Positions 1 to 33,753 of a DNA stretch of 40,585 bases are shown here, in pieces (within the stretch, counting starts at the first letter, position 1; the number at the start of each line of letters is the position of its first letter). The stretch is from Catajapyx aquilonaris (lineage: Eukaryota): assembly GCA_000934665.2 (NCBI GenBank), contig JYFJ02000983.1, positions 62,001-102,585 on the forward strand, given 5' to 3'. The notes beneath the pieces are model-generated. The model worked only from the letters and a program-made list of their open reading frames with translations, was not told the origin of the DNA and did no database searches. Position numbers and translations under genes: made by a program.

Positions 1-383
1 AACGGTTTCATGGACAAATTATTTTAAAATTCTGGGGCCAAAGCACTGGAGACCAAAATGCTGTGGGTTCATATGCACTGGGAGCGAATGTTCTGGGGGC
101 AAAACTGCGGAAACAAACAGTGAGGGATGCCTGAGGTTTTGCCTTTACTTGAAAGTTTGGGTGAGATCTCCCAAGTTCAGTGTGGGATTTTAAATGTGGT
201 CAGCTGTTGGATGAATTTCCATCAATGTTATGAGTTATTCCAGTAGGCATTCAAGAATATTGAATCCTTTAGTTTTATGAGCTTAGTTTGTGTGATTAGT
301 AAAAGATTATTATTATTCCTAAATATTTGTAAGAGGAGGATAGCAAAAACCATATGGGTTTGACATCTTGCTCTTAACTGCAG

Positions 384-602
384 ATACAGAAGATCAGATA
401 CCACACTTTGATGAAAATTAAGGGACCTTATAAGAAATGTCGCCGCCGTTGTGTTGGTTGCTATGCCAGATGGAGGCGCCAGAGTGGGAAGAAGGAAGCA
501 GATAATAAATCAAAAAAAGTTACTACATATTGTGCAGATTGTGAGAAACAGCCAGTACTTTGCATTGACTGCTTCAATGAAAGACATGTGGAAGTTACCT
601 GA
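384..602 (+). CDS. Terminal exon encoding a piggyBac-transposase-type C-terminal cysteine-rich (zinc-ribbon) domain; 5' part of the gene is outside the window or unidentified
   Basis: Acceptor ctcttaactgcAG|384 (phase 0) gives IQKIRYHTLMKIKGPYKKCRRRCVGCYARW...KKVTTYCADCEKQPVLCIDCFNERHVEVT*. The H...RCxxC...TxxYCxxC...LCxxCFxxxH spacing matches the piggyBac/PGBD CRD. AATAAA at about 806. No transposase core lies upstream within the window. Confidence 0.7.
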   Translation: MQKIRYHTLMKIKGPYKKCRRRCVGCYARWRRQSGKKEADNKSKKVTTYCADCEKQPVLCIDCFNERHVEVT

Positions 603-2080
603 AGGTGGAGTGTCATTTCCATTTTTGCTTTGACAATATTGGTATCTTTGACAATCTCAATGAGCTGCCAGCTGGTGTGGATTAGGGTGCTGCACAGGAC
701 ACAGTTGTCTGACTTACTTGTAAGTCAACTGGTTAGCAGTGTTGTACAGTGATATTAGTAATAAGACGCGGCGTTTTTTTATTTGTTTACATCGAGTGTT
801 CATGCAATAAAACTTATAAAATAAAATACTCTTAGTCATTATTGTTTTGAAGAATGCTGCCTACAATTACAAATTATGAATAAGTTGCAATATGAGGCAG
901 TGATGGCAAAGTTCGGGATTGTGACAGAAGTTGAAGATCCTAAGGGCCACGTCAGACCATGCACGCAGATTAATTCTTCTGATGTACACAGGCTGCCACT
1001 TAGACCATTCCTCTCACTCACCTTGGTTGCATGCATTGGATTTACAAGTTCTAAATCATATGACCAACACATGAATTCACTAGACTGTAAGGGGTTGGCG
1101 CAGGGTTAGGGAGGACCTCTCCCCTCGTCCTTTCAGACATCTGACGTCAGACAAGGAAATCAGTATTAATAATAATCATAATTAAATATTAAATAAGTTC
1201 ACATATTTCAAATACTGCCATTTGACAATATTCCAGAGAAATCAGGAATGTGGCCTGTTCCATGCCTGTTCCACCAAATATGAATTTCTATCCTTTTTTT
1301 TTTCACTTCCTGTTTTCCTCGTCCCACTTGCCTAGACACTCAAAGCCAAAAACATGTTGAAACTGTCGCATTTTGAGGCCAGTCTCATTTGAGTTCGCGC
1401 CACCTGCACTACAGTGGTTTCGGGTTGGTTCAGGCGCCTGCCCAAATCACAAGATCCATGTGGGGATGCACCAGCACCACGGAGGAGACTTTTATATTAA
1501 CTACCATGTTGTAGGAGTTGCATGGGGCTGCTCTGGGCCAAACACCAAACACCTTAGTTCTGTTATGGTTAGCCTTATCCTGACACAAAATCATATCCAA
1601 TAATTTTGCGCACACATTGTTTCTTTATGATGGCATCAGGAGGATTAATGAACAGTGATTAACTCCAGAAATATGGTGTCTGCCATTGATGGCAAAATTT
1701 AAATGGAGAGTTTTGCAAAATGCAGTTGAGCAAATCTAGGTTTGCCCTTTTCAGTTGTCTCAATCATGTACCAGAAACTGAGTTGTTGGATAAAAATATG
1801 TTTCCTATCGATTTCCTGTAGTGTTTACCAGTATACATGGGCAGATTTGAAAGTAGATTTTGTAGATTTGAAATTACTTACTACATTAACATTCACTTTT
1901 AAAAATTGATATGTTTTGTTTCGAGATGTGTTACCTGATATATAGGGATATTGTGCATATGTTCATAAAGATTACTATAATTTTTGTAGCTTAGACATTA
2001 TCGTAAATACTCTTGGCATCATTGGTGAGGATCTAAAATGTCACTCATTTGATAACAACACTTTTTTATTGTGTTGACAG

Positions 2081-4139
2081 GCTTATGCAGATGAAACTCT
2101 CCTGGGTCACAGAAAGAGAAGGAGTTCAGTGTGGACTTATTTTACAACTATGACAAATCTTCATGGTTTTGCGCAATGTAATCTTTGCAACAAGACCATC
2201 TCATACAGATCAACACTTACAAACTTGAAGAGTCACTTGAAATCCATTCATGAATTGGCCTTGGTCGGCAATTGCAGTGGTCAGCCACCTGCTCAAGCCA
2301 AAGTCATCACAACCCACCAAAGCGACATAGCCAGGACTACTGCTAACACTGGTAATATTTCCATTCAATTAAACTTTTGTATTAAATTGACATTATGCCA
2401 TTCGGTGACAAATACATTTTTTCCCTTTCATAGCTTACTTAAATCCAGTTGGAATGTGCATTAATAGGGAAGAAGTTGTGGGGGCAGCTCCAACTGAAAC
2501 CATTGTTCCAGACAAACATTGGAGCTATTTTCAGCAACAACAAGGACTGATGGCTGCTCCAAAAATGATAACTCTTTCTGAGAATGGTGACATTGATTCC
2601 ATATTAGTGGAGTTTTTTATCAAGCATTACCAGCCACTTTCACTGGTTGAAGCACCAGGATTTGTTAATCTGATTCACGCACTGAATCCCAACTACACAC
2701 TTCCAACTGAGAATTACCTTTTAAAAACATTGCTCCCTACCATGTATGAGGCTTCCTTGAAGGCAGTGCAAAAAAAGTTAATTACGGCAGGGGGTGTATG
2801 CATAACCTGTGAGTCTTGGACGTCAGTTACCATGGATAGTTTCATGAGCATTTCAGCTCACTTCATTAACAATGACTTTGTAATGCAGCATGTGTTGTTG
2901 CAGTGTTCAGAAACTACAGGGCAGGTCACCTCGGATGATCTTGCAAATGATGTCAAACATGTGGTGCATGAGCGGGGACTAGAAAACCAAGTTTTGTTAG
3001 TGGTGACTGATGACTCAACAGATAAGGTTAGAATCAGTGAATTAAATACATGGCAGCACTTAGGGTGTGTTGCTCAAAAACTTAATCGAATTGTGAGAAA
3101 GTGCCTTGAGATTGCTGAACCAGTGCTTGTGAAAGTACGAGACATTGTTTCCTACTTCAGAAGAAGTGAATCAGCCAATGAGCAACTTCGTACCATGCAG
3201 AGAGGTGTTTCTTGTGATGCACCATCGCAGCTTATTATGGATGATAATTCCAGATGGCTTACTACTTTCTACATGCTGAACAGATTTACAGAACTGGAGG
3301 GAGTCATTAGGAGTTTGGAAGCGTCACTACCAATGCCATTGATTACTTCTGGTGATGGACAGATTTGTTTGGAGCTGGTAGAAGTCCTGAAGCCCTGGGA
3401 AGAAGTGACTGTCAAATTAAGTGAAGATGGTTACTTGGCAGGGGCATTAGGAATTCTTTATGTGGATGGATTGAGAGATCACTGTTCTGACATGAAGAAA
3501 AAATCCTATTCATCGCTCACTGTAGATGTGGTTAACTGCATGGACAATGAAATGGAAGTGCTGGTGAAAGAGATTGAACAGAGCAGTTCTTTGGGCCTCT
3601 CCTTGCTTCTTGATCCAAGATTTAAAATGTTAGGATTCAAAGACACTCACCAAGCAGAAATTATCAAAAGTAAACTAAAGGTTCATCTCCTTGCTGAAGA
3701 AACCAGTACAGTCAAGAACTGCTCCCCACAATCAGGTTCCAAATCATCAACGAAGCCAACAGTTTTGTCAAAATTACAGAAGAAAATTGCTACTGCACAG
3801 TTGAATTCTCGCAAGTTCTCCGAATTGGAATGGTGAGATATTCAAATGCACAATTTAATTTTCTCTTCTTTTTCTTCTAACACATGTAATGATCTTTGTA
3901 GTTATCTGAGTGAGCCTTCCCCATCAATGAGTGAAGATCCTCTCCAGTGGTGGCAAGAACGGCAGTACTCATACCCAGTGATGTCTAAAATTGCTAAAAA
4001 CCAGCTCTGTGTTCAGGCTTCTTCTGTACCCTGCAACCATGTGTTTTCCAAAGGTGGATTGATGATTACTGATAATCGAAGCAGGCTCAGTGCAGATGTA
4101 GTTAAACATCTCACAGTTTTGAATGCCTTTATGGAATAA
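2081..4139 (+). CDS. BED zinc-finger/hAT transposase-derived protein (ZBED1/ZBED4-like), 3 exons, probably domesticated; 5' end not found
   Basis: Exons 2081-2351, 2434-3832 and 3902-4139 join by GT-AG introns in phases 1 and 2, giving about 635 aa with no stop. Motifs: BED finger SSVWTYF...AQCNLCNK...TNLKSHLKSIH; hAT core PLSLVEAPGF, ESWTS, SAHFI, VVTD, SRWLTT, LLDPRFK; dimerisation domain ELECYLSEP...DPLQWW...YP...ASSVPC..VFS.GG...RSRLS. Confidence 0.85.
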
Positions 4140-4234
4140 GAAAAAATAAATTATGGACATGGCACACGGGGCTGTGCTGGATGTACTGCGGTAAGTGCAT
4201 TTGTAAAGGGTATGTTTTAAAAATACTGTATATA

Positions 4235-4590
4235 CTTGCCCTAACCCTGCATAATTCGGCCAGCTTGAAATTGTGGCTGCTCGATTTATGGAGAGGCATC
4301 ACACGCTCATAAAATGACATCTAGGGTGCCGGAGAGGTGCCCACCAAAATGGGTGGGTCCTGGCCCACAATTACACTAAATATGGAACCTCTAGGATAAT
4401 TACTGTATTGTGTACAAGGTATTTAAAGTGTGTCACAAGGTGCAGAACAATTCGGCCTTAGTGCTTGCTGTGTCAAAATAAATCCGCCAGGTGATGTAAC
4501 CCCACTGTAGTTTTATCAGCATGTGACTCCTCTCCGCAAATCGAGCAGCCACGATTTCAAGGTGGCCGAATTATTCTGGGCTAGGGCAAG
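4235..4590. mobile_element. MITE with about 55-bp imperfect TIRs and TA flanks (Tc1/mariner-type)
   Basis: Left end TA|cttgccctaaccctgcataattcggccagcttgaaattgtggctgctcgattt is the inverted repeat of right end aaatcgagcagccacgatttcaaggtggccgaattattctgggctagggcaag|TA. Confidence 0.75.
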
Positions 4591-4705
4591 TAAAAGCCAG
4601 TTATAAAAGCTACAGTAAAACAGTAAAAAACCATTTCTGGAGAATGTTTAGTGACCTTTTAAGACTGGAGATGGATGTTCTCTGTGTTCTTCTGAAGCCT
4701 TGATA

Positions 4706-5322
4706 CGAGGGTTGATTCATAAGTCATGGCGCATACTTTTTTATTCGAAAACGGTAAAATATACAGAGATGACCTTTGCTGAATTTTGAAGATCCGGCGA
4801 TTTCAATTTTTTCTGGCATTTAGATGTCGCCCATATCGCGAGGGGGGTGGGGAAACAAAGGGGGAATATGACACACACACACACGCACACGCACACACCC
4901 CTCCCCACTGCACCATCGCCCTAAGACAGCACGAGCCTGACGCGCTTGGAGCTGTTGGACGTTGCATGCTGGACACTCGGCGATGGACAACACGGGAGCT
5001 TGAATTCGAGTGTGGGACGAGTCGGAGCACTATGCTTAGGATTCCAAACTGAAAGGCCTCAGGAAGTTGGCATCCTTTCGGGTTCCTCTCCATCTCTTTG
5101 AGGTGCAAAAGTGCTGCCATTTTGCCCTCGCTTGGAACGCTATTGCATTGAGGGCGATGGTTTTTTAAAACTGTCTGTGGTGATGGATGACACATGGCTT
5201 CAGTCATGTTGCTCTGACTTGTCCCACACTCGATAGCAAGCTCCTGGGTTGTCCATCTCCGAGTGTCCCGCATACAGCGTCCAACAGCTCGGGCCATCTG
5301 AGGGCAATGGTGCGGTGAGGGG
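4706..5322. mobile_element. Degraded mariner element with two inverted copies of a transposase HTH fragment
   Basis: Mariner-like end TA|cgagggttgattcataagt. The plus strand (about 4900-5040) reads AVGRCMLDTRRWTTRELEFECGTSRSTMLRI. The minus strand (about 5205-5322) reads AVGRCMRDTRRWTTQELAIECGTSQSNM. Both resemble the mariner DRRxTxRELAxExGxSxxT HTH. Confidence 0.65.
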
Positions 5323-6073
5323 GTCACGATCCCCTTTTGTTTGTTGAAATGTTGCATTGGTCAAGGAGTGTAGAGCACTGCCTGTTATGTTTTTGATAAA
5401 TAATGACATTTTCAAATTTGATCTGCAGATTTTATGCTTAATTGCCTCAATGCTAGCCCTGCAGCCCAGTGGTACACGCTGGTACATGTCTACATGAATG
5501 TTAATTGCAAAACAAGGGTAAGGTGTAATTAGTGCTGAAAGTTACGGAAATCCTTTGCTGTATCATGTCCGAGTACTATAGATGCATTAACCACAGTGAG
5601 TCTTGCTGATGAGTTCATGGACGTGACTGTTCCTTCTGAACTTTCTAAAGAAAAAGGACTGACGTAGAGTAGGTCAAGATCCAGCCTTTCTCATGTGAGA
5701 AAATATAATTATGGCACATTGTTTCTTGAAAACAGTGTGTCTGTCCTGCCAAGCCCTTGCACACTAGATGGTGAAGAGAGTACTTTGTGTAGTGTTTTTT
5801 GACAAAATTAAGTCAAGAGCAACCTTGGTGCGGGCTTTTGTATCCTGCTCCTTGTTGGTCACTTGTAGAGTGCCAAATTCATGATGAAATTATTGGTCTT
5901 TAATTCCACTCTTTCAAGAGACTCAGGTATGGTAAGAAAAAAAGTATTATGCAATTAAATTTTGCATTCTGTTATTTATGGTATCATTTATTTGGAGTGT
6001 CGCATGTATTAGAATAATTGAAAAATAATCACCAAAAGCTGTATCTTAGCCCATGCTATTTTATTGCCTGCAG

Positions 6074-6520
6074 GAGGAAATTCGCCTGCTGCCGTTTTCG
6101 GTGGCTGAAGTTGGGACCATTTTACTGACACTGTCAAATGAGATGCAGGAACAGCCACAGGTCCAAGATGCCGACCTCCCAGAGTTTTCACATAATCTTG
6201 AGGCGTTCCTTGCAGGCAAAGAGTCACCAAGGATGGCAATGGTTCAGCTGAAGGAAGAGATCTTGCAGTACTTGGAGTGAGTATCCATCTCATTGTATTG
6301 CAGTGTGGACCTGTGATTGTTCATGGACTGATTGAATTTGGCATTTTTTTCTGTTCTACTTAATAGTGACAATAAATTGGTGATGGAGGGGAATCATGGG
6401 GTTTTGCGATGGCAGTACAATGAACTTGGGAAAAAACTTGCCAGGAAATATCCAAATCTGACTTGGGGTCCCACAAAGAAAAATGCAGCAAAAGAGAGTG
6501 GCCCACCTAAAAATGTCTGG
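6074..6520 (+). CDS. Two phase-compatible exons of an unidentified protein (possibly a transposon accessory or SAMD3-like fragment)
   Basis: Exon 6074-6276 (cctgcAG|...|GTGAGT, phase 0 in, phase 2 out) and exon 6367-6520 (taatAG|...|GTAAGT) join in frame: EEIRLLPFSVAEVGTILLTL...EEILQYLDDNKLV...RWQYNELGKKLARKYPNLTWG...KNVW. A possible next exon at 6719 stops at 6829. Confidence 0.45.
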
Positions 6521-7968
6521 GTAAGTGTGCATTTCTCATTGTGACCTGATGTAATGTTAATCTTCAACAAGCAATAATTTTACGTTTTCACTAGTATTGT
6601 ATGAGATGGCAAGGTGTTGTTGTGTTCACCTTGTCATTACAGGCTACCCTATCTAGGCCTCTATGAGTAGACTCACTTATTTTAAAGCAAATGTATAATT
6701 CGCATTTTTAAAATAAAGATGGCTATCATTGGGCAAGTGGCGTCAATGCGGAGGATGCGACGATGCCGAAGAAAGAAACAAGCAGCAGCTGCAAGGAAAC
6801 ACCATGAGGATGCAGAAATTGTGCCATGAATGAAACAAAGCACAACTACTGATTGGGCGCATGGCGTCACCATTTCAGAGGAATGTGATTTTAAAAATGA
6901 AAGTGCACCAATGGTGAATGTAAAAACTGAATCGACCCACGTCAGAGAAAATTTTTGTTCCTGAAGAAAGACAATGTCCAATCATTTTGTGAATGCACAG
7001 TTGTGTCATCAACAATAAATCCAAAGAAGTTGTTTTATACTGTCGATAACTGAACTCACCCTGTCAATCTCTGCCATTGCTGACATTACACGTAATTGTA
7101 AATGAATCGATTGTCAGTGAAATGTCTACAAACGTCCATGATGTCATCGGCTGGGTTTCAGCTTTTGGTTTCCAACTTTATTTTTTCACCCTCGATGATG
7201 ATGTGAAATTTTCCAATCACCTTGGCCTGGACAGTGGCCTGGACCTCCAAAATCGCAAAGAGCTGTTACAATCGCTTCTGCGCAATAGGCTACAAAGGAG
7301 CTTGTTCAAGTAGCGGCTACTTTCATGAGCAGCTGTGCTACAATCGGGCTGTCGAAATCCGGCCATTGCAAATTTGCGCAGCTTGCAAAATTCCCAAAAA
7401 GTGTACTGCACTGGGCTGTTTGAAGTCTGGGTACGTCTCGGGTTGGCACCCAGCTGACACACCCGCATGATTTTGGGGCCAGCGTAAATGACTTTCCCGT
7501 AACCATGTTGCACCAGAGCCCACTTGTGATTTCGTGGCAAAGTGTCCAACACTGGCCAGTTGCTAATCCTCACTTAATCAGGGCAGCAGGTTGGGGTGGG
7601 TGGCATGCTGACATTGCAGCAGATAGAAGGACAATATATTCCTCATAAGATAACATGGACCACATTTGATCAGCTGTAAGACGAGAGTGGAGACAATAGA
7701 AATCTTCCAGCAGGGGCCCCACCCACTCTCAACCGTTGCAGGCATTTCATGCATTGGGAGTGGACATGCCTTGTGGGCACACTTTGAACTTCACTAATAT
7801 CTGTTGGCCTCCAAATTCATTGTGTAATGAGGTGTGTTATGGTTCTTGGCAACTGTTGCAGCCACATATTTTGTTTATTGTCACAGGTGTAAACAGCTCA
7901 GAAGATTCCACGACACGGAAATCTAGAATTTCTATTACCGTACCTCTGGTTTTTACATTGGAATCCAA

Positions 7969-10067
7969 ATGGCTGATGCAAGATTTTCATGGGACCCTTT
8001 GGAGGCTAGCGGCTGGGATCCCAAGAGTGTAACCCCTCACAGCATTCGGAGGATCAGGAAGTATGCGACCATAAATATGTACCCAATCTGGGTAAAGATG
8101 CTTATTAACCAAAGTGATATACGTAGGACAAAATAGTTGTTAGCACAGAATAAATAATTCTCTTGTAATCAGTGAATTGACTCTATAACAGGTGATTACA
8201 GGCTTATTTGCGTCAGTATTAATTGGCACGAGTTATGATCGAAGAATTATTGGACTTGTGACCTTTCTAATTGCACTTTTGCTAATGGAAGGCATAATTT
8301 TTTTATGAAGTTAATGTACGTTTATTGCTGCCTTACAATTGGAAAGAGATATTCACAAAATTAAGTAAGAGCCAAAGGCCAAAAAATACAAGTTGAATTG
8401 AAGTACATGTCCATGGAATTGTAATTGTAAAACCACTTATTACCCTTCATAGCCTTCACATGTTGAAGCTTGCTGGGTTCAAGGTGTTGAAAGCCCTTGA
8501 AATTTGAATCATGCAGCCTTTAAGTTATTGGATGAGTAATACACAGGTTTTATTGATGGCTTACCACCTACAATTCCGGTTTCAGTGACCTGAAGGCAAT
8601 ATATGAGGATCCGCCGCCAGGGATGTTTGTTTGCCCGGATGAGGAGGACTTGACAAAGGTGCACTGCCTGGTGACTGGCCCATGTGATACTCCCTATGAA
8701 GGAGGCTTCTTCTACTTCCTCATCAGGTTCCCACCAGACTATCCCATCAAGCCTCCCAAGGTCAGGCTGATGACCACCGACAGTGGAAGGGTGCGCTTCA
8801 ACCCTAACCTGTACAAGTCAGGGAAGGTCTGCCTCAGCATCATTGGGTATGGCCTCCTTTTTGAAAAGAGAAGCATTGTTTTAGTATTTGGTGCTAATGG
8901 GAGACATTCAAAATTTTAAGCTGTACGGGCACCACTTCATGCATTTCAGATATACAGTATACATGGGCTATTTTCATTTCCAAACTGACTCTTGTACTTA
9001 TAACTTTTTATTGTACAGTATTTGTGGTTTATGATGTGATTTACAGGACATGGCAAGGTCCAGCTTGGACTTCAGCTCTGAGCCTGTCTACTGTCCTCAT
9101 GTCAATTCAAAGCCTCATGTGTGAGAAGCCTTACCATAATGAGCCTGGGTATGAGAAGGTATGTTATCAGAGGCTGTTTAGACTGTTCATAAAGGTCAAA
9201 AATGTCAATGATATGATTATTTGATATTCAACTTAATATTACTGGATTAAGTATTTTGCCTTTACAAAGTGAAGAGATATTGCCCTGCCTAAAATACATT
9301 ATTGAAAATATGGTGTGTCCTTATTGCAAGTGAAGTGCATCTTGCTTTTCACAAAGTATTTTTATTTCTTCTGGAAAAGTAATTCTTGTGATGTTAGGGA
9401 CTAAAATGGCTCCTTGTGAGACATGGTAAAGGTCATGCCAGAGAGTGACCTGGTGTGTCTGTATCTTCTGTATATTTTTTCACCAGCAGAAGCTTTGAGT
9501 ATTTCTCATTAATCAAAGTACACTGTTCTCCAGGAATATAGTTCTGGTGACTCAGAACGCTACAACAAGACAGTCTGCCATGAGACAATCCGTGTGGCAG
9601 TGTGTGACATGGTTGGTGGTGAAGCAGGCTGTGTGGTACCTGAAGGTCTGAAGGAACCTATTGAGGCCACTTTCTTGGAGTTTTACGACTACTACCTACA
9701 GGCCATTGAGGCTAACAAGAACCTTGATGGGCAGCGGATGAGAGTGAGTATATGGCTCAGCTCACACTTTTGAGTACATGACAACAGCTGAATTCAAGTG
9801 CAGAGTGAAATAAGTTTCTGCTCCAACTACATCTTCAGAAATCTCTTGGGTTACATCATCCAGTAGTGATGTTCTGACGTTTTGGTCTTCATCAATTTGA
9901 TTCTCTTCCAGGATCCATTTGATCACAAGACAGGGAACTACAACTTCAAGAGCATGTTGCCTCGCCTCAAAGCTTTGTTTGAAAAACTTTCGGAGAAGCG
10001 CAACTCAGACAGTTTGCTGGCCACTAATATTGGCAGCTGGACATCAAGTGATGATGATGATGATTAG
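7969..10067 (+). CDS. UBE2Z: Ubiquitin-conjugating enzyme E2 Z (USE1), 5 coding exons, about 276 aa
   Basis: Exons 7969-8060, 8586-8846, 9047-9158, 9534-9743 and 9912-10067 are all GT-AG and in phase. Protein: [18 protein letters not shown]...[18 protein letters not shown]...[13 protein letters not shown]...[25 protein letters not shown]...[19 protein letters not shown]...[11 protein letters not shown]...DPF, with an acidic tail. 5'-UTR acceptor at 7886 with an in-frame stop before the ATG. AATAAA at 10229. Confidence 0.93.
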
Positions 10068-11814
10068 ATTAGCAGAGATGCAGAAGTACTGTTGGGACCA
10101 ATGAGGATCAAGGCACTGATTTAGAGGAGAAAACAAAACAGATGGAAATTCAGTGGTTTTTGTTCCTTCTTTATTTAGAAAGGTATTATGTGCTGAAATT
10201 TTGTGGGCATTTGCTTTGTATTACACAGAATAAACAACATGTGAAGAAGCTGTAAGTATGATGAATGGTTGGAAGGAGCATGGACTGCAGGGGAAAAACA
10301 CCACTTGTTTGCATGTTAAGTTTTCTTGCCTCACGAATCAGTCACTTCTCATCAACACTGTCTTACAGGCAGATCTGCAGTTCTCATGAGTGGAAATGGG
10401 GGAGAAATAGTAAAGTATATTTTAATCTATACTTCTACAGTATGATAGCCCAGGAACCATAATTGAATTTTTTTTAAGATCACAGACTGAATTGCTTGGC
10501 GTGCTAGCCTGACTATAGCAACGTCCATCGTACAGTAAACCATGTACGATGCCCCTGAAAATATGTGGAGAGAGAGGGGGGGCCTATAATGAATATCAGT
10601 AAATAACAATTTATTTTAGTATCTGTTAATTTCTTGTTGTTATACAACTAAACAGTTTTAACAACACATCATATTTGTACAATATTTTTGTCCCATTGCC
10701 AAAATGGAAAGTGCTAAACAAGTTGTAGTGATTGTGTTTTGTGTACAAATACCACCAGCACAGTATTATCAGAGACTCAAACAAAATGTGCGAGAAAGTG
10801 TGAAATAACATCATGCTGACAGTACAAAATACATTTGTTTTGGCAGTGTACATTGTAAGCTTCATGCTCATTTTAATGAGGAACATTGAAATCACAAACC
10901 ATTTTAAAAACGTACAAGCTGAAATCAGGTTACGAGAATGGTGACACAGAGCATCTTATAAATATTTATGATATTTCCTGTAATCATGTGGCAAGTTTTT
11001 GTTCAATCATTATCATGATTATGTCTCCAAGACAATAACAAGAATGTGCCATTTCCATACAAAGAGTACTCCGTTGCATCATGTAAATGTGATGATGTGC
11101 AGCTTTAAATTTTTAACGCATTGTAACCTGCACAACATACAATACTGCTTGTGTTTGAACTGACATTGTTTTTTTATCAACTAAATGTAATCCTTGAAAG
11201 GTTGTGGCAGCTACTGTCAACTCAGAAGAGAATCCACACAGCCAGTCGTACAGGAAAAATTGCAACGGCTTTACAAAAACAGATTTGTCATTCTTTGGCT
11301 CCTGATGCAACAATGAAGAAGGTACTCCGAAAAAGAGGATCCTTGTCCCATGAAATTCCTCGCTGATATAATTCAATGATGGACAGTGATGTAACATTTG
11401 AATGTAACTTAAAAGCCTTCTTTCAGAAACTTCTATTGGTAATTAACACTGCAAGTAATTGCATCTTACTGTTGAAGGAAATCATTTTTACAAAAAGACA
11501 GTCCACATACATAAATTTTATTCTACCTTATTAACAACACAATCATGCAAACTCTAGTGTCCACCATGATCTGCTTTACAATGTTTGGAGAATAGAATGC
11601 TGCCAAATATATTTTCTTGCATAAGGTTCTATTTTCAATTTGAGAGAGAATTTAAAAAGTACCCATTAAAAAAAAAAAAAGTAATAACCTTCATACCAAA
11701 TGAACACTTGAACCCATTGTCTTGTCATAATTCCTCGCACAAAATGCTAATCAAAATAGGAAAACATCGCCCAAACATTACAGTACTAAAAAGTTGAACC
11801 ACTGCTCTGACAAT

Positions 11815-13075: not shown

Positions 13076-13212
13076 CAGGTGACTCCAGATAAAATAGACT
13101 CTCAGTTACAGCAGTCTCGAAAGAATGGTCCCTGCATACTTCCTTTGTATTTGGCTGTAACAGCCCTCGGTTTCTGCCATACCTTGCAGTCTGTCATATC
13201 CAGAGTCTACTG
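13076..13212. mobile_element. Degraded pogo/Tigger-like MITE, same family as 13878-13961
   Basis: Ends caggtgactccagata and tatccagagtctactg|TA. Shares internal tggtccctg and taacagccctcgg words with the 13878 copy. Confidence 0.55.
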
Positions 13213-16200
13213 TATGTATTTCCACCTATGACATTTCTGCCCTGTTTGTGCTATTGATGCACCTAGATCAGTCTTGGAAGGAGATTCCGTCCTTTTCTTG
13301 CATTCACACATATACACCTTACTGCTTCCTGCGTGGGCCTGCACATGAAGGATAAATTCAGGCCACTGTGGGAATCTCGCCCTGCAAGTGGGACATATGT
13401 GCAATTCCCTTTGGTGTACATCTCTACAGTGAGAAATAAGATGCTCGTTGCTCTCAAACACTTTTAGGCAGAACTTGCACTGGTGGAGTAAGCCTTGCGC
13501 AAAAGGCTTCCCATACATTTTGAACTGGGACATGGTGAAGTAGATGCGGCAGGGGTTAGGCTCACCCAGGTTGGGCTTGGGGGCTGCTGGTTGGGCAGAA
13601 CCCATGCTGAAAATATAAGGAACTGTTACAGCACTACATAAAACATGAGGAGGGGTACTATAGCATCTTTGGCATTCGAGCAGTTAACTCAATTGCCATG
13701 ATACTCAGCCATACCAAGGCTTACTTAATGAATGGTCAAGTGAACTTTTCAGTCAGCTGTCTCACGCTTGGGGTAAGCAATTCTGTCAAATGTAATGCAT
13801 CGGTCAATTTTTTTTTAAAGAAAGAAATCCCATTTTGTGACTGGAAAGCCCTTGTAAACCATAGAACAATAATTATACAGTTAACTCCGGATATAACAGC
13901 CTCGGCTATAACAGACTGATTTCTGTGGTCCCTGTAAGTCTCTTTTATCCGGAGTCTACTGTAATATAAAATGTGGATCCCGCTCCTAAGAATACATAAG
14001 CTTCTACAAGCGATTTTAATATTAATATATTTATTATTATTATTACCATTAATAAATTATACATTTTTACATGCATACTTTGCTCCTGACAACTAACCTG
14101 GATGTTGGCTGAATTGCTCGTGCCTTAACTGAGGTGGAATTTGAGAGATTTGTATGACAAAGGTCTTGTGGCTTGCTATGACTTGGTGGCTTCGGAGCGA
14201 TTTTGGGATAACTCTTCAAGCGCTTGTGGTACTTGGGCAGTTTTGGCTTGCATGGATGTTTTTTGGCCATGATTGGCTTTCCTTTTCCCTCACACATGTA
14301 TACTCTCCCCTTTCCCTGGTGGGTTTGTACATGAGTAATGAAATGGCACCACTGCCTGAAGCTTATCAAGCACATGGGGCACTCATATGTCGTGGGATAG
14401 TGACAATGTACCACGTTGCAATGATCCTGGACATCAGCATCTGATGTATATAATTCAAGGCAGTATTTGCACTGACGGAGTTTTCCAGTGGCAAACTCTT
14501 TACCAAAAGTCATGAGCTGATCCATGGTCAAGTAGATTCGATGCATGCTTGGTTCTGCTAAAATTGGCTGCAAGTAAATACATTATCTTATTTAGAACCA
14601 CAGGCCTGATCGTGTAATTGTATTGCATTGTTTTGTAATTTATTCTGTACAAAATGACTTGACTATATCATCAAATTTTTTCTTCTTCACAAGCTCTGGT
14701 CAATAAATTACAGTTTATAAAATACACCCCAGTTATTAAATACAGCAACAAGACACTAAAATATAACTCCCTCTAACCCCATGTTATATGTCCATGCTGC
14801 TACTTACTCTCTGGTCAGGATGCACCTTCATCATATGCTGATCCAGATCCAACTTCGTCCGAAATAACTTGCTGCACTTCTCACAAAAATTTATTCTTGT
14901 CAGCACAATGGATAAATGCCTCAAAACGACCTGAAATGCATTAATTCCGTTAGCTGAATTATCTTCTTGCGCCAATAATACAGTCACAGTGTTTTCTTCA
15001 CATATTTTCTCAAAATTGCAGTATGGCACATATGGCCCCAGTTATGGGCACAATAACTTCACAAAATGAAAAATAAATATTGACATAGTCATGCCTCTAA
15101 ATAGTAAAGTCAGTACCAATTAGCGCAAATGGCATTTCACAATCAATCTGTTAGCAAAGATGTGGTAACTGGTAATTAAATTAATAATGCCAGATGAGGC
15201 TCACTAACAGGTCAACAACTAGTAATTCAATAAGGCAACACAAACTTACCCCTTGCACAACGTAATGGGATGAATTGTAATGTGTGATGACATGTTCATC
15301 TTTCTGAAAGAAGAAAACATCCTGCATAGTGTGGTAATATATTCATTTTTACGAACTCATTTTCAAGGATTTTGTTAACATTAGTAGTTCCCTTTTATTT
15401 ATCTAATGCCTGACTATTTAAGACTGGACACCATTTCATACTTCAATCTGGTTTCACTTCAGAAAAAAATACCACTTCCTTGAAAAACTGCAGTACAACT
15501 TACATCATTCCTTCCTAGGCCAGCACTTGTGAAGCTGTCATGATTGTGTGTGAAATCCTCCTCACACTGATATTCCATTTCTTGATCAAGATATTCACTT
15601 GAATCCTTCATATTGTGTTCAGAATCAGAGTATTCAGCTACATCATCTTCTTCCTCACCATCCTCCAACCAGTATGATGGGTCCAACTATGAGAACAAAA
15701 ATTATTATTATTATTATCATTCTGCACACTTTACTCTGGGAGTAAGGAATCCTTGGATTTCAAGATTTCTTCTCTACTCACTCTATTGGATTTCTACATG
15801 GAAGTGGTAATGCTTATGTACAGTAGGCCTATTATCTTTCATTTAATTTTTCCTCCACCCACCTGGATCACCATATCCTGAACATCGTGCTCTGATGCAT
15901 CTGATAATGTTTCCAGGTATTCTTCTTCGGGTTCTTCCTTGACGCATGAGCCAAGCCACTTTGATGTCTCAGCATATTTTCTTGCCACTGCCACACCCTC
16001 TTCCATCACAGCAGATGCTTTTGTCTGAAATAAAATAGGAACTTTGAGAAGAGTGATGGGAAGCAAATGCTTTGTTGTTTGGGGCCACGTTTACATGTGA
16101 GCGATTTGATCAGCGATGTGCACTGAGGAAATCAATTGTTTGGGAACGACACGCTATTGCTACTTTTGCCACAAACAATTGGTTCGCTCACAAGTGGCCT

Positions 16201-16659
16201 ATAACATGATGCAGTCAACAATTTCTTGTGTGATATTGTTGTGCTTTGCAAAATCAATCCTCATATCCACTGATAACTGACAGAAATGCACAGGTACGGC
16301 CATTGTGGATGTTGTGACTGTCTTGTAATTACAGCTGATATTCTTCTTAAAATTTCGAAAATATGAAGTAGTTACATGCACTCTTCAAGCCGCAGGATTC
16401 TGTCCCTAATGGATAGATTAAGGCTGGGTTGCACTGGCTCCCGGAAAATATGCCTGGCTCTTTTTCGACCAGATAAATTTTCCAGGAGCTGGTGCAATCT
16501 GGCCTAAGTACGGCTCATTAAAATGAGCTATTTATTAATGAGACTGCTCAGTGACTGGAGTAAAATTGCACTTACACTCTCTTCTACCTGTGCATTCCTT
16601 TCCATCTTAATGGAATGTCCACGTACACTCCTCAGCTCCTGATATTCTTCCATTTGCAT
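13207..16659 (-). CDS. C2H2 zinc-finger protein with an acidic N-terminus, one single finger and two duplicated two-finger modules (about 491 aa if 13207 is the true stop)
   Basis: Minus-strand exons 16659-16576, 16024-15863, 15686-15504, 15303-15250, 14930-14808, 14567-14098 and 13606-13207 join by GT-AG introns in phases 0,0,0,0,0,2. Fingers: CEKC...HMMKVH; CKYC...HCNVVH/CPMC...HVQTH; CKFC...HCRDVH/CPTC...HVQAH. VKEEPEEE motif present. UTR acceptor at 16751 and an upstream donor near 17079. The start codon and last exon are less certain. Confidence 0.8.
13878..13961. mobile_element. Small pogo/Tigger-like MITE with TA flanks in the zinc-finger gene intron
   Basis: TA|cagttaactccggata ... 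tatccggagtctactg|TA. Confidence 0.65.
16422..16504. mobile_element. PIF/Harbinger-like MITE with TAA target duplication, family shared with 37883-38025
   Basis: TAA|ggctgggttgcactggctcccggaaaat ... attttccaggagctggtgcaatctggcc|TAA. Confidence 0.65.
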
Positions 16660-24083: not shown

Positions 24084-27000
24084 ATGTTTGTGGGCCAATC
24101 CACGTTTGGTGGTGCAGCTACTGGCTTCGCCAGCAGTGCCACGCCTGCTACTGCCAATCCCATGCGCAACTTTGAGGTCGTCTCCCCTCCAGATGACTCC
24201 GTCTCCTCGCTGGCATTTAGCCCTCCGACTATTCCCCAGAACTTCCTCATTGCAGGAAGCTGGGACAACAGCGTAAGTGTTTCAGTTCACTCTTCACATC
24301 GTTTCATCAGCTTGAACTGAGAGGACACCTTTCGTTTGCTCTCTTTGTAGGAAAATTGGTGTTAGAAGTTTGTTTCAAGAGTAATGTGTGGTAAAAATGT
24401 CTTTATTGTCTACTACAGGTTAGATGCTGGGAAGTTGAGCAGTCTGGTAAAACCATTCCAAAATCTATGCAGAGTATGTCTGGACCCATCTTGGATGTCT
24501 GCTGGAGTGATGTAAGATTTTTTAAAGTCTAAGAAATCTATTATCATGTCATGGCTACTGCTTGTAACATGCAAATTCAACTTACATGTTAGCATATTCC
24601 TCATGCACAGGTGGTCTGTGTTACGGTAAATGCTGAGAGGGTATCTCTTGGATGCATATTTCACTTTGTGTGCTCGTAGTTTAGTTTTGTCCTCCACTGG
24701 ATCAAGTTCATTACAGAAATATTTTGTGAAGAGGAATGATTCCAATATACACAAGTTTCACTCACATTTAGACCCATATGTCTCAGGGCTTTCATGTGCG
24801 TCATGCTTTGCATCATTTCCAAAAATAGGATCTGAAACAAAATATTCCTCCTACTTAATCCTTGATTCTATCCCTCAATTTTCTCTTGACTGGCATTGTT
24901 ACATTTTTAGTAAAGGATATTGATGTCAACTGCAATTGGCATTTTGTGTTCCACAATTGCAGCGAATTTCATTTGTGCATAAGTTGATATTTAAAATTGC
25001 ACATTAACCTTGCTTGTGCCAAAGTATCACTACTGCACTTGGTTACACAAGGCCATGAAATTCTTGATCTTCATTTACTTGTTACATGACTTGAGGATTT
25101 TTGAAGCGTCAACGTGTCATGACCACAGACCATTTTTCCAATCTGCGTTGTTTGTACTTTACAGGATGGCACAAAAGTGTTTATGGCATCGTGCGACAAG
25201 ATGGTGAAGTGCTGGGACCTGAACAGTAACCAATGCATCCAAGTCGCGCAGCATGACTCCCCAGTTAAAGTATGCAAATGGATCAAGGCTCAGACCTACT
25301 CGTGTCTCATGACTGGATCCTGGGACAAAACTCTCAAGGTCAGATCAGGTTTTCACAGATGAGGATAATTAAGGCATCATTGCATTTGGTGAGTGTAAAC
25401 CTTTTTTTTTTTGCACACACAGTTCTGGGATCCAAGGTCCCAAACCCCAATGATGACAATTCAACTTCCCGAGCGCTGCTATTGCGCCGATGTGGAGTAC
25501 CCGATGGCAGTGGTGGGCACGGCAGGCAGGGGCCTGATAGTGTACCAGCTGGAGGGACAGCCTCAGGAGTACAAGCGGGTGGAGTCTCCACTGAAGTACC
25601 AGCACAGGTGCATCTCCATTTTCCGAGACAAGAAGGGATCACCCACTGGGTTTGCCTTGGGGAGCGTGGAGGGAAGGGTGGCCATCCACTACGTCAACCC
25701 CCAAAATCCAAAGGACAACTTTACCTTCAAGTGCCACAGGTCTAACGGTACCACAAACGGGTACCAGGACATCTTTGCTGTGAGAATTTCATGTTTTGGG
25801 ATTGTTATGTTGTTCATTAAAGCCTAGTTACATGAATTAATTTCAAATGAGTGAATTAATTTCGGGAAAATCTTGCATTTTGTCATAACAATTTTTATTA
25901 TCTTTGTGATTATTCATTTGCCAGTGTTATGAGTAATACAGAATGATTTCTTACTCAGTTGTTTTGCATGTGCTGGGTATGTTTGGGATCTAACACGTAG
26001 CCTCTCGTGTCCTTTCCTGCGCTAGGTGAATGACATTGCGTTCCACCCAATTCATGGCACTTTGGCTACTGTTGGCTCCGATGGCCGCTTCAGCTTCTGG
26101 GATAAGGATGCTCGTACCAAGCTGAAGACCTCCGAAGCAATGGAGCAGCCCATCACTTGCTGCACTTTCAATCACAACGGGCAGATCTTTGCCTATTCAG
26201 TCAGCTATGACTGGTCAAAGGTCAGTTGTTCCATAATGCACATGTAATACATCCAAAGTTCTTGCGCAGCAGAAGCTATTTGCCTAGGTATATTTCAACT
26301 ATTGTACAGGGTGGGGCAAAAGTCATGGGCGGATTAAAACGACGCAGCATGGCGTAAGTAACGAACAATTATATTTAACCCTAATAAGACGTGTGGTTTT
26401 TCGCGTTTTTGCAAGGATCTGCAAAAAATTCGCTTGCTTTGGCACTTGGGGGGACGAGACTTGAAAACACTAGTGAATAAGATCGTCTAGTGTCCAGGCT
26501 GGATCCTGAGGCCATCTATGTGACCCTCCTGTCGTGCCATATGGAGGGATAAATTCTTATATGCGCAAGAGGTGGCGCAGGGGGGTATGTTTCGCGCCTA
26601 CTCAAACTTTTTGTCACTCAGCCTGCTTGTCAAAAAATTATCGGTATGTAGCCTTGGCACCTCTGAACAAAGCAGTAACTTACATAAGCACATGGCATGA
26701 ATTACGTCACAGGCATTCCTGGCGAGCTATAGTGATAAACACTCACACCCTCACGAATGTAAACATTCCTTGAGCCACAGCTGTTCAAAACCCACGCGGG
26801 GCATGCACCCCTCCATCCAGACAGGCCGGCAGGGAGTTGCGCAGAAGCCACCCAGTCGCTAATTGGCATTTACGAACATTAGTTATTTATTTTAAAACTA
26901 TTGAATTATCTTTTGCACTAATTTTAGGGTGTAATCTCTTGAGGAGGTTTGGGAGCAACTATGTATGCCAAAAATTTGCCGGTCAAGGTCGTTTTTTTTT

Positions 27001-31431: not shown

Positions 31432-33753
31432 TTAAAATACCACTTTCCACTTGGTAGGCTGCTGACATTTTGGTTCATCATCTCCACAAAGGCGGTTAAA
31501 TGTTGTTTTTGAGCTGAAGCCTAGAATTTCTCTTTCTTCTTGGATGCGAAATGAGAAGGTGGATTCAAATGTTCCAACAAAGTACCTGGAAAACAACACA
31601 TCCTGTGACTACTGCTTCAGATTTGCAAATGCAACGGGTACCTTGCATGTGAGCAGATAATCTGGTCAATGATTGCAACGCCACCATCTTTATACTTATT
31701 ATGGACAGTGGCTGGTGCGTCATAAGTGACAGTGTTGTCCACAAGCTTCTTGAGTTCAGCAATTTCTAAGAAAGAGTTCTGTCACAATTATTATTGTTCT
31801 GCATGTGAAGAGTGATGTCTTACCATTTGTGGGAGCATCCGTGGCCAGAAAGACATGATTTACATCTAAATTTTTCAGGACGGCCACAATCTGTTGTGCG
31901 GCACCAGTGAGACTAGGAACATGTTTGGCACGCCCATACAGAAAGTCCCGACGCCTGAGATGTACACACAAGTATGGGCCACCCTTAGTAACCCGCTCCT
32001 GAAAAGCAGCTTTTAGTACCATACCTCTACTACTTGCATCTGTGGGCGTACCTTCTCATCCCTCCAGTCATCAGGTTGAATTGTTCCATCCATCTCATTA
32101 GAGGAATTTAAGTAACTTAACCTGAACTCTGAAGCCAATTTGACCAACTCTTTGGAGAACCGCATGCTCCGACGGACCTTCCAATATTCTCTGTCACCAA
32201 AAGTGTCATGCAACACGATTTCAGCTCGATCAATCATGACAAATCTGAAAATTTTTCAATCAAGTAAAATGCAAGATGAGGTAAAAGTGATACATACGTT
32301 CCACGTGAATTCAGAAGAAGCTCCATCAGTGTCTTTGCATGCCCTTGGACAGAGAGGCACACAAGTTTCTTGGCAGAAACATTTTCATAGCCCCAAAACC
32401 ACCCAGATATCTCGTTATCTTCTTCACTGCAGAAAAAAGAGGATGCTGATTTAACCCTCTTCCATTTACTGTACTTCAATATTAATTACTAAATTCTTCC
32501 TTTCTTATGTGTTCATAAGAAGCCTCTGCCTTAAATCATTCTCAAGAGTAATGTTTGTCCAATCTTTCCTTCGCATGGCCTAAATGTTTTCTCAAATACG
32601 ATTATATCTGGACATACATGTATGGAGGGTTGTCAATACAAGGCCGTTCATCAAACTTTTCTTCCCATGTGCCATCAGACCATCCTTCTGCATAATGCTG
32701 TAGGTAATACAACTTCTCAATTTCGATCTTCTTATGTTCTGGAATAATAGGATAGGATAGCATTAATTAATAACAGAATGACACTGAGCTAGACTCATAG
32801 TCACACCTTTCAGCACATCAGCCAATTCTACCACAGGTACATATTTCCTCATGCTAGGCACATCAAAGAAGAGGCTCCATGGTAATTTCACTTGAGTAAT
32901 GTTCTTGGATTTCCAGTGATACAAATCACCCCAAGGTGGCAAGATCTGCAAAAACATGCAAAACATCCACAGCCTGTTCATGAATGTGACAAAATGAAGC
33001 AGCTCTGGCAATATTCTCCGCACATAATCATTCCCAATCATGCATTCCCCATAAACATCTGCATGCATTAATTTCGCGTATGTTGTATCTCTAGCCTCCT
33101 ACACAGCCATTAGATCCACCCTCCATTGTAGTTTATTCAAGAGTAACATTAAAATGTACCAGACTCCAGTCGCCTCGTTCCTGTAAATTCCGCACCAATG
33201 AAGCCACTCTCATGTACACATCCCGTCTCAAGTTGAAGCCTTCACTGGGGTTCACCTCATACAGCAAATACCTGCAAGCAAATTCCCATCACTGACCAAT
33301 AAGTCTTTGCATATCTTACATCGTTACATGCTACCACCACAATACCTTAATATTTTTCCACATACCTTTGCTACTCTCTTCTCACTCCCATTATTCCCAA
33401 TCAAAACCCCAGGGTGCCTCACAAGTCTGAACCCTTAGGAGTATTCTATTGAATTGTTGTAGTATATGATACAATGATATAATAATGTAGTAGTACGGTA
33501 CAATGTTACTATGTAAGTAATGTAACCATATACTACAGCAATGTAATAGGAAACTCCTATGGGTCCAGGGACACCATGTAGACATTAAACATATTGCACA
33601 AACAACGAATAAAAAGGGCAAGTAGGAACCTCATTACCTCTTTGGAAGGGCAGTGCCTGCATCACACTGCTCCGGAGTCTGCACAACTTCGCCTTTCGCA
33701 ATAATTATCGCTGCACACAACAAGCCTCCAATCGCCACAACATACCGCAGCAT
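31432..33753 (-). CDS. POFUT2: GDP-fucose protein O-fucosyltransferase 2, 9 exons, about 420 aa
   Basis: Minus-strand exons 33753-33638, 33271-33160, 32945-32807, 32738-32618, 32426-32298, 32244-32052, 31998-31824, 31765-31642 and 31585-31432 are all in phase. Signal peptide, then [94 protein letters not shown] and TFNRLCGD. Confidence 0.95.

Follow-up and report, generated by a model that had tools for sequence, protein, structure and literature searches.

In the genome of Catajapyx aquilonaris, a 40,585-nucleotide (nt) stretch of DNA (GenBank assembly GCA_000934665.2, contig JYFJ02000983.1, positions 62,001 to 102,585 of the forward strand; referred to here as the window, with all positions counted from its first letter) carries near its left end three successive plus-strand coding units (units 1 to 3). 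None of the three has a start codon at its front, and the first two encode domains of two different transposon superfamilies. We tentatively read these units as alternative sets of 3'-terminal exons belonging to a single plus-strand gene, with constant 5' exons that would be situated to the left of the window, unit 3 being the original tail and the two transposase units having been captured in the last intron, and we place the probability of this reading at roughly 0.45. The window is nuclear DNA of a eukaryote, contains spliced genes and has a G+C content of ~41%.

An earlier note on this DNA, made from the letters alone, had described three plus-strand coding units, each opening at a splice acceptor in phase 0, without a start codon ahead of the first conserved motif. 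Reading of the sequence together with a script confirmed all three, behind CAG acceptors at positions 384 (unit 1), 2081 (unit 2) and 6074 (unit 3). At each of these acceptors the first base of the exon is also the first base of the frame, and this phase is common to all three, as one shared donor would require. The closest in-frame stops on the 5' side (TAA at 375, TGA at 2075 and TAG at 6047, respectively) are 2 to 9 codons off, and the first in-frame ATG is codon 10 of unit 1 and codon 24 of both unit 2 and unit 3. The unit 1 ATG follows the invariant ligand H7 of its domain and that of unit 2 falls inside its BED finger, in agreement with the claim that no start precedes the first conserved motif. 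With stops so close upstream and no early ATG, each unit therefore needs an upstream coding exon. At their other end the units are closed by stops at 600-602, 4137-4139 and 6827-6829; the note had credited only the first two with a stop of their own, and the third has one likewise. An AATAAA signal follows each stop at a distance of 6 to 204 nt (806/820, 4145 and 7014). Searches against Rfam and for tandem repeats in positions 1-9000 returned nothing.

Unit 1 (384..602) has just one coding exon, a terminal one, whose 72 codons and TGA specify a piggyBac-type cysteine-rich domain (CRD) and nothing else; the 3' untranslated region (UTR) that follows is taken to span 603..825, with AATAAA at 806 and 820. 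Exhaustive searching with phmmer gave 295 matches to the CRD at E ≤ 1e-3, of which 19 reached E ≤ 1e-10 (best match 3.7e-15, 50% identity), whereas a word-indexed search for longer proteins with this domain gave none. In nearly all of the 150 matches listed (of 295) the CRD was the C-terminus of the matched protein. Pfam domains were called in 43 of these 150, comprising every long relative and a selection of short relatives: DDE_Tnp_1_7 was present in 35, BTB in one and zf-Tnp_2 alone in one, and six had no domain. The Pfam model zf-Tnp_2 (PF13842) scored unit 1 itself at 14.8 bits (E = 0.044), under its cut-off of 24 bits and about equal to the B-box score; because several true CRD relatives likewise fell under the cut-off, the model is regarded as insensitive for this branch. 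In an alignment of 20 sequences including the window CRD (alignment A2), ten positions were invariant (H7, R20, C23, C26, Y27, C50, C53, C60, C63 and H68), and unit 1 has all ten, among them the Cys and His zinc ligands H7, C23, C26, C50, C53, C60, C63 and H68. The profile of this alignment matched the piggyBat transposase (E = 4.9e-78) and the piggyBac transposase (E = 3.7e-54) in the Protein Data Bank (PDB), where a search with the single sequence gave only chance UBR-box rows (E = 0.3-0.6). The AlphaFold model of unit 1 has a predicted local distance difference test (pLDDT) score of 89.5. Of 48,161 chains compared, the closest to it in fold was piggyBat residues 510-571, a modest match (Z = 5.1, root mean square deviation [rmsd] 3.6, 56 residues aligned; next Z = 3.4), and the top two Foldseek rows were also piggyBat, though weak (E = 0.6-1.6). 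By homology, unit 1 is thus assigned as the C-terminal CRD of a piggyBac transposase, a domain described in the available part of one source (PMC5861402) as a sequence-specific DNA-binding cross-brace finger. A CRD of 72 amino acids (aa) cannot stand alone as a protein. No piggyBac DDE domain was found in the window by tblastn with 158 proteins, full-length piggyBac transposases included (E ≤ 1e-3); the piggyBac set matched positions 402-587 only. It is also worth noting that five of the proteins matched by phmmer (P0009, P0020, P0021, P0027 and P0158) are short and have a C-terminal piggyBac-type CRD without DDE, joined to unrelated or junk-looking N-termini; these may be mis-predicted stand-alone CRD exons of other genomes, and further cases of CRD capture.

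Unit 2 consists of three plus-strand exons: exon A (2081..2351) with a BED zinc finger (Pfam zf-BED, E = 4.8e-12) and a donor, 2351|2352, that is used in RNA; exon B (2434..3832) with the hAT RNase-H-like core and insertion domain, both of whose flanking junctions occur in RNA contigs; and exon C (3902..4139) with the dimerization domain Dimer_Tnp_hAT (Pfam, E = 4.9e-19), ending in TAA at 4137-4139 ahead of AATAAA at 4145. Spliced together (2081-2351 + 2434-3832 + 3902-4139), they form one frame of 635 codons plus stop. A profile of the core built with five relatives (A1) gave a match to the Hermes transposase that spans profile positions 54-567 (E = 2.4e-43). With the piggyBac homology of unit 1, and with the Pfam and Hermes matches placing unit 2 in hAT, the proposal that the units hold domains from two transposon superfamilies was upheld. 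The residues of the catalytic motifs are in part replaced: unit 2 has E at the D of the xxDxW motif (D in 5/5 relatives), Q at the H of the CxxH motif (H in 5/5 relatives) and N-H in place of E-R (found in 3/3 relatives covering that region), and it retains the second D of the catalytic motifs. These columns align with the Hermes motifs IDLW, TDRG, CSSH and SER, whose aligned residues we take to be the catalytic residues of Hermes. A word-indexed search with the hAT core gave only eight distant relatives, the closest of which is 36% identical with its catalytic motifs kept, and a single-sequence PDB search with the core gave none at E ≤ 1. No pair of terminal inverted repeats (TIRs) with target site duplications (TSDs) was found around unit 2 between 603-2080 and 4140-6073 (20 shuffles gave 0 or 1) in a search with a 6-nt exact seed and at least 10/12 TIR and at least 6/8 TSD matches, from which degenerate or very short TIRs may escape; nor did the inverted-repeat search of the window give any repeat bracketing the unit. 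Unit 2 is read as domesticated because it combines an intact long frame, used introns and replaced catalytic-motif residues with no TIR+TSD pair found, and it bears the sequence signature of a domesticated, catalytically dead BED-hAT transposase that is not mobile. A donor at 2025 (TTG|GTGAGG) was considered as the coding partner of the acceptor at 2081 and ruled out, the phase-0 frame before it being closed by TAA at 2004-2006. The sequence between units 1 and 2 also contains a perfect cyclic AMP response element (CRE) palindrome, TGACGTCA, at 1142 and a TATCGAT resembling the DNA replication-related element (DRE) at 1806, both of which are motif matches only.

Unit 3 is without a known family. 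Its exon A (6074..6276; 67 codons and 2 bases) is predicted, matches no family and ends at the donor GGA|GTGAGT (GT at 6277-6278). Exon B (6367..6520) has a donor, 6520|6521, that is used in RNA (depth 11), and its frame is continuous with those of exons A and C. Exon C (6719..7022) is coding as far as TGA at 6827-6829 and continues as 3' UTR with AATAAA at 7014 to an end near 7022, as placed by bin depth. The joined frame (6074-6276 + 6367-6520 + 6719-6829) amounts to 155 codons, for which the chance of remaining free of stops is ~5e-5 under a mononucleotide model. None of the three exons matched any Pfam family at E ≤ 10, an atlas search gave only unnamed bacterial clusters, and the single-sequence fold of exon A (pLDDT 59, three helices) was uninformative. 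Residues 35-66 bear a likeness, noticed by eye, to a BESS motif, which had no support in Pfam and was dropped.

Evidence from RNA came from the contigs of one run, X1, which is treated as RNA because its contigs show GT..AG joints; the joints given here are those listed, and the run holds a further 40 loose ends and 98 pieces. Transcription was seen for all three units from the plus strand, with GT..AG joints inside unit 2 (2351|2434 and 3832|3902) and unit 3 (6520|6719). Over unit 1, contig record 1 spans 396-769 without gap or mismatch, and over unit 3 a contig covers ~6432-6520 + 6719-7022 (by depth arithmetic), with its end shortly after the AATAAA at 7014. Over the units, the X1 contigs agree with the window and have no other letters. 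There was no cover at 1-395, 770-2001, 5337-6003 or 6074-6431 (the last by depth arithmetic). The unit 1 contig begins 12 nt into the exon, at 396, without loose letters; this could be a de Bruijn break arising from low cover or from a second acceptor, CAG|398, which would keep the CRD frame only with an upstream exon ending in phase 2.

Under the one-gene reading, unit 3, which has no transposon homology and is the last before the next gene, would be the gene's original tail, and a piggyBac remnant cut down to its CRD and a dead BED-hAT would sit inside a long last intron. Each captured unit would be spliced in through its phase-0 CAG acceptor and closed by its own stop and poly(A) signal, such that the choice of splice and poly(A) site would yield three proteins with one N-terminus and with the CRD, the BED finger plus dead hAT, or the host tail at the other end. 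The transposon-derived tails would supply DNA binding, to which the hAT C-terminal domain could add dimerization. We infer one upstream donor for the three acceptors, joined in cis or, as at mod(mdg4), in trans, together with the DNA-binding roles. Two rare domesticated units of different superfamilies, adjacent and on one strand, would be expected from capture by one gene and would otherwise be a coincidence. In its most specific form, the proposal is of a single animal gene in which a piggyBac CRD and a dead BED-hAT, captured in the last intron, act as mutually exclusive tails beside the original one, a young and small analogue of mod(mdg4) and lola with possibly a BTB-type N-terminus; we hold this version at somewhat below even odds.

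Several observations weigh against a single gene with alternative tails. Among the X1 joints listed, none enters 384, 2081 or 6074, and the contigs stop before all three acceptors, starting at 396 for unit 1, short of 2081 for unit 2 and at ~6432 for unit 3. By bin depths, X1 covers neither the exon at 6074-6276 nor the junction 6276|6367. Depths of the contigs differ among the units (12.1, ~3 and 11), which is nonetheless neutral on the matter of one promoter, and the three 300-nt stretches 5' of the acceptors share no 7- to 10-mer. The putative upstream constant exon would lie outside the window. As most CRD relatives scanned end complete transposases (35/43), unit 1 could be what closes a piggyBac-derived gene, its DDE lying upstream of the window. 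Lastly, ATG-to-GT first exons in phase 0 can be proposed within the window itself, at 1466-1567 for unit 2 (weak donor) and at 5434-5517 and 5881-5931 for unit 3 (good donors).

These last points belong to the alternative that the units are three separate neighbouring genes, which has real weight although the odds are against it: unit 1 would be the last exon of a piggyBac gene whose DDE lies upstream, unit 2 a stand-alone ZBED/DREF-like gene and unit 3 a small orphan, with ATG exons so far unseen at ~840-2080 (unit 2) and ~4200-6073 (unit 3). Beyond the frequency of DDE_Tnp_1_7 among the scanned CRD relatives, it could draw on the unequal contig depths. Domesticated BED-hAT proteins can stand alone, as in the ZBED/DREF family, the spaces between the units (~1.2 and 1.9 kb) leave room for promoters, and the CRE palindrome at 1142 and DRE-like TATCGAT at 1806, motif matches though they are, could mark a promoter of unit 2. 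However, the candidate first exons all lack X1 cover and occur at about the frequency expected by chance (one per 300-700 nt), and a further candidate at 660-719 is read through unspliced in contig record 1. The empty stretches at 770-2001 and 5337-6003 also speak against separate first exons there, if weakly, because the cover of unit 2 is itself patchy. In addition, the 383 nt 5' of the CRD exon hold no piggyBac DDE remnant detectable by tblastn, and separate genes would demand a short ATG exon on the same strand and in the same phase 0 for all three neighbours, as well as the chance adjacency of two domesticated transposase genes from different superfamilies.

A strict mod(mdg4)-type arrangement, in which each unit has its own promoter and an "outron"-led RNA that is trans-spliced to constant exons (for example, TTK-type BTB exons), would suit units that are start-less and each equipped with acceptor, stop and poly(A) signal. 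The variable 3' exons of mod(mdg4) are indeed described, in the available parts of three sources (PMC12692577, PMC6237743 and PMC11426971), as having independent promoters and being joined in trans, and a spider BTB protein with a piggyBac CRD exists whose BTB was called TTK-type by eye. BTB domains of the TTK type occur only in arthropods according to the portion of PMC11426971 at hand. We nevertheless regard this arrangement as very unlikely, given that the window has no BTB exon, that there are three units only, one of them without a recognizable DNA-binding domain, and that the acceptors have no common upstream motif; the features of the locus fit joining in trans and in cis alike. An equally improbable explanation sees in the units only debris of transposons, with frames left open by chance and transcribed as background, and with neither function nor fusion partner. 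It could call upon the repeat-like palindromes between units at 4233-4592 and 4949-5290, the mere 36% identity of the nearest hAT relative found and the lack of any homologue found for unit 3. Against this, the 635-codon frame of unit 2 has been kept over two used introns despite deep divergence and lost catalytic-motif residues, the CRD keeps all ten invariant residues, the 155-codon frame of unit 3 runs over two canonical introns (with the chance of ~5e-5 given above), and the contigs over the units are identical to the window.

The proposed capture by one gene has parallels in known systems. According to the sections available of a study of tetrapods (bioRxiv 10.1101/2020.05.07.082677), host-transposase fusions arise by alternative-splicing capture of intronic transposase exons, and the window units resemble its examples CSB-PGBD3, SETMAR and KRABINER in entering via a splice acceptor and ending in their own stop and poly(A) signal. 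In the same sections, the fusion form of CSB-PGBD3-type fusions can coexist with the parental 3' end, and the DNA-binding domains are retained. In contrast to such fusions, the window has two superfamilies side by side in one supposed intron, with the host exons outside view, and where CSB-PGBD3 retains the whole transposase, the piggyBac part of the window is the CRD alone.

A likeness to Drosophila mod(mdg4) and lola had been proposed in the earlier note, and it holds for part of the architecture: as at those loci, in the account given by the available part of PMC11426971, the window has terminal units in tandem on the same strand, start-less and with their own stop and poly(A) signal. It does not extend to the number of units, of which there are only three, or to a BTB exon within the window; Pfam scans of the open reading frames (ORFs) of the window gave no BTB match, and no search aimed at BTB was made. 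The units of mod(mdg4) and lola number 20-30 or more, with FLYWCH or C2H2 fingers and BTB as the constant part, and in that same account they add differing zinc-binding or DNA-binding tails to one N-terminus. The three window units, by comparison, are a CRD, a whole BED-hAT and a tail of no recognized family, and the likeness comes from the units alone, the constant part and the junctions being out of view. Capture in a last intron fits at least as well as a mod(mdg4)/lola-like locus, because there are only three units and the last is not of transposon origin.

A closer counterpart of unit 1 was found in spiders. The protein P0055 ("transcription factor GAGA-like [Stegodyphus dumicola]", 381 aa) has a BTB domain at residues 19-117, which by eye looks TTK-type, and a CRD at 328-381 without a DDE domain, and P0159 ("Protein bric-a-brac 2, partial", from S. 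mimosarum) is 87% identical to it. These spider BTB+CRD proteins resemble unit 1 in having the CRD at the very C-terminus without DDE (48% identity over residues 15-68) and have BTB as their N-terminal partner; they are not, as far as can be told, orthologues of the window gene, and by analogy they are an earlier instance of a CRD standing alone as C-terminal module. The literature searches brought up no description of a BTB-piggyBac-CRD fusion, nor of piggyBac or hAT exons at a lola-like locus, although such combinations may be given in supplementary table S1 of PMC12062965.

Members of the ZBED family and DREF are domesticated BED-hAT proteins in which BED finger, hAT core and dimerization domain are present but the catalytic residues have been lost. 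Unit 2 shares all three of these parts with them, and its catalytic motifs too have lost residues; we do not propose it as the orthologue of any named ZBED gene. It differs from them in that its BED finger is not preceded by a start codon within the unit, and no close relative of it was found (best 36%).

The host-transposase fusions on record each involve a single transposon, and most come from tetrapods. Should the three acceptors share one donor, this single locus would illustrate how multi-isoform transcription-factor genes can be assembled: by repeated transposon insertion in a terminal intron, with acceptors used where the DNA-binding part begins, catalysis lost and separate poly(A) sites kept. 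Two superfamilies and the parental tail at one locus would then make the origin of mod(mdg4)-like variable exons testable. Even if the units prove to be separate genes, an expressed, intron-bearing gene for a dead BED-hAT and an exon encoding only a CRD would be new examples of transposase domestication.

Downstream of unit 3, on the plus strand, lies an independent UBE2Z-like gene with RNA-supported exons at ~7355-7429, 7886-8060, 8586-8845, 9046-9156, 9532-9743 and 9912-10485. All five of its joints (7429>7886, 8060>8586, 8845>9046, 9156>9532 and 9743>9912) were present in X1 in contigs at a depth of 24.3, one of which is 1407 nt long, and the core exon (8587-8844) matched human UBE2Z at E = 6.3e-39 with many positions differing. 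The first exon (~7355-7429), ~320 nt 3' of the likely end of unit 3, is non-coding, and the ATG is in the exon at 7886-8060. Since this gene has its own 5' exon and ATG, unit 3 is not its 5' part, and the series of units ends near 7035. Farther along, the window contains a plus-strand exon of the mRNA export factor RAE1 (25399-25827; E = 1.4e-62 to human RAE1 chains) and, on the minus strand, two exons of a GDP-fucose protein O-fucosyltransferase (31756-33098; Pfam O-FucT, E = 2.5e-9 and 9.2e-7). Another spliced gene on the minus strand (13207-16600) has CT..AC joints at 13606>14098, 14928>15248, 15303>15504 and 16024>16576. Two of its exons, 13207-13683 and 14067-14582, are similar to one another and each carry paired C2H2-like fingers, which looks like an internal duplication.

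The two palindromic repeats between units 2 and 3 (4233-4592 and 4949-5290) resemble miniature inverted-repeat transposable elements (MITEs); their arms (87 and 86 nt) show 85% complementarity. The second palindrome sits in a minus-strand ORF of 185 aa with a likeness, by eye only, to a mariner helix-turn-helix (HTH) region, for which Pfam found nothing. The X1 contigs over this second palindrome differ from the window at positions 5089 and 5138, which suggests that further copies exist in the genome.

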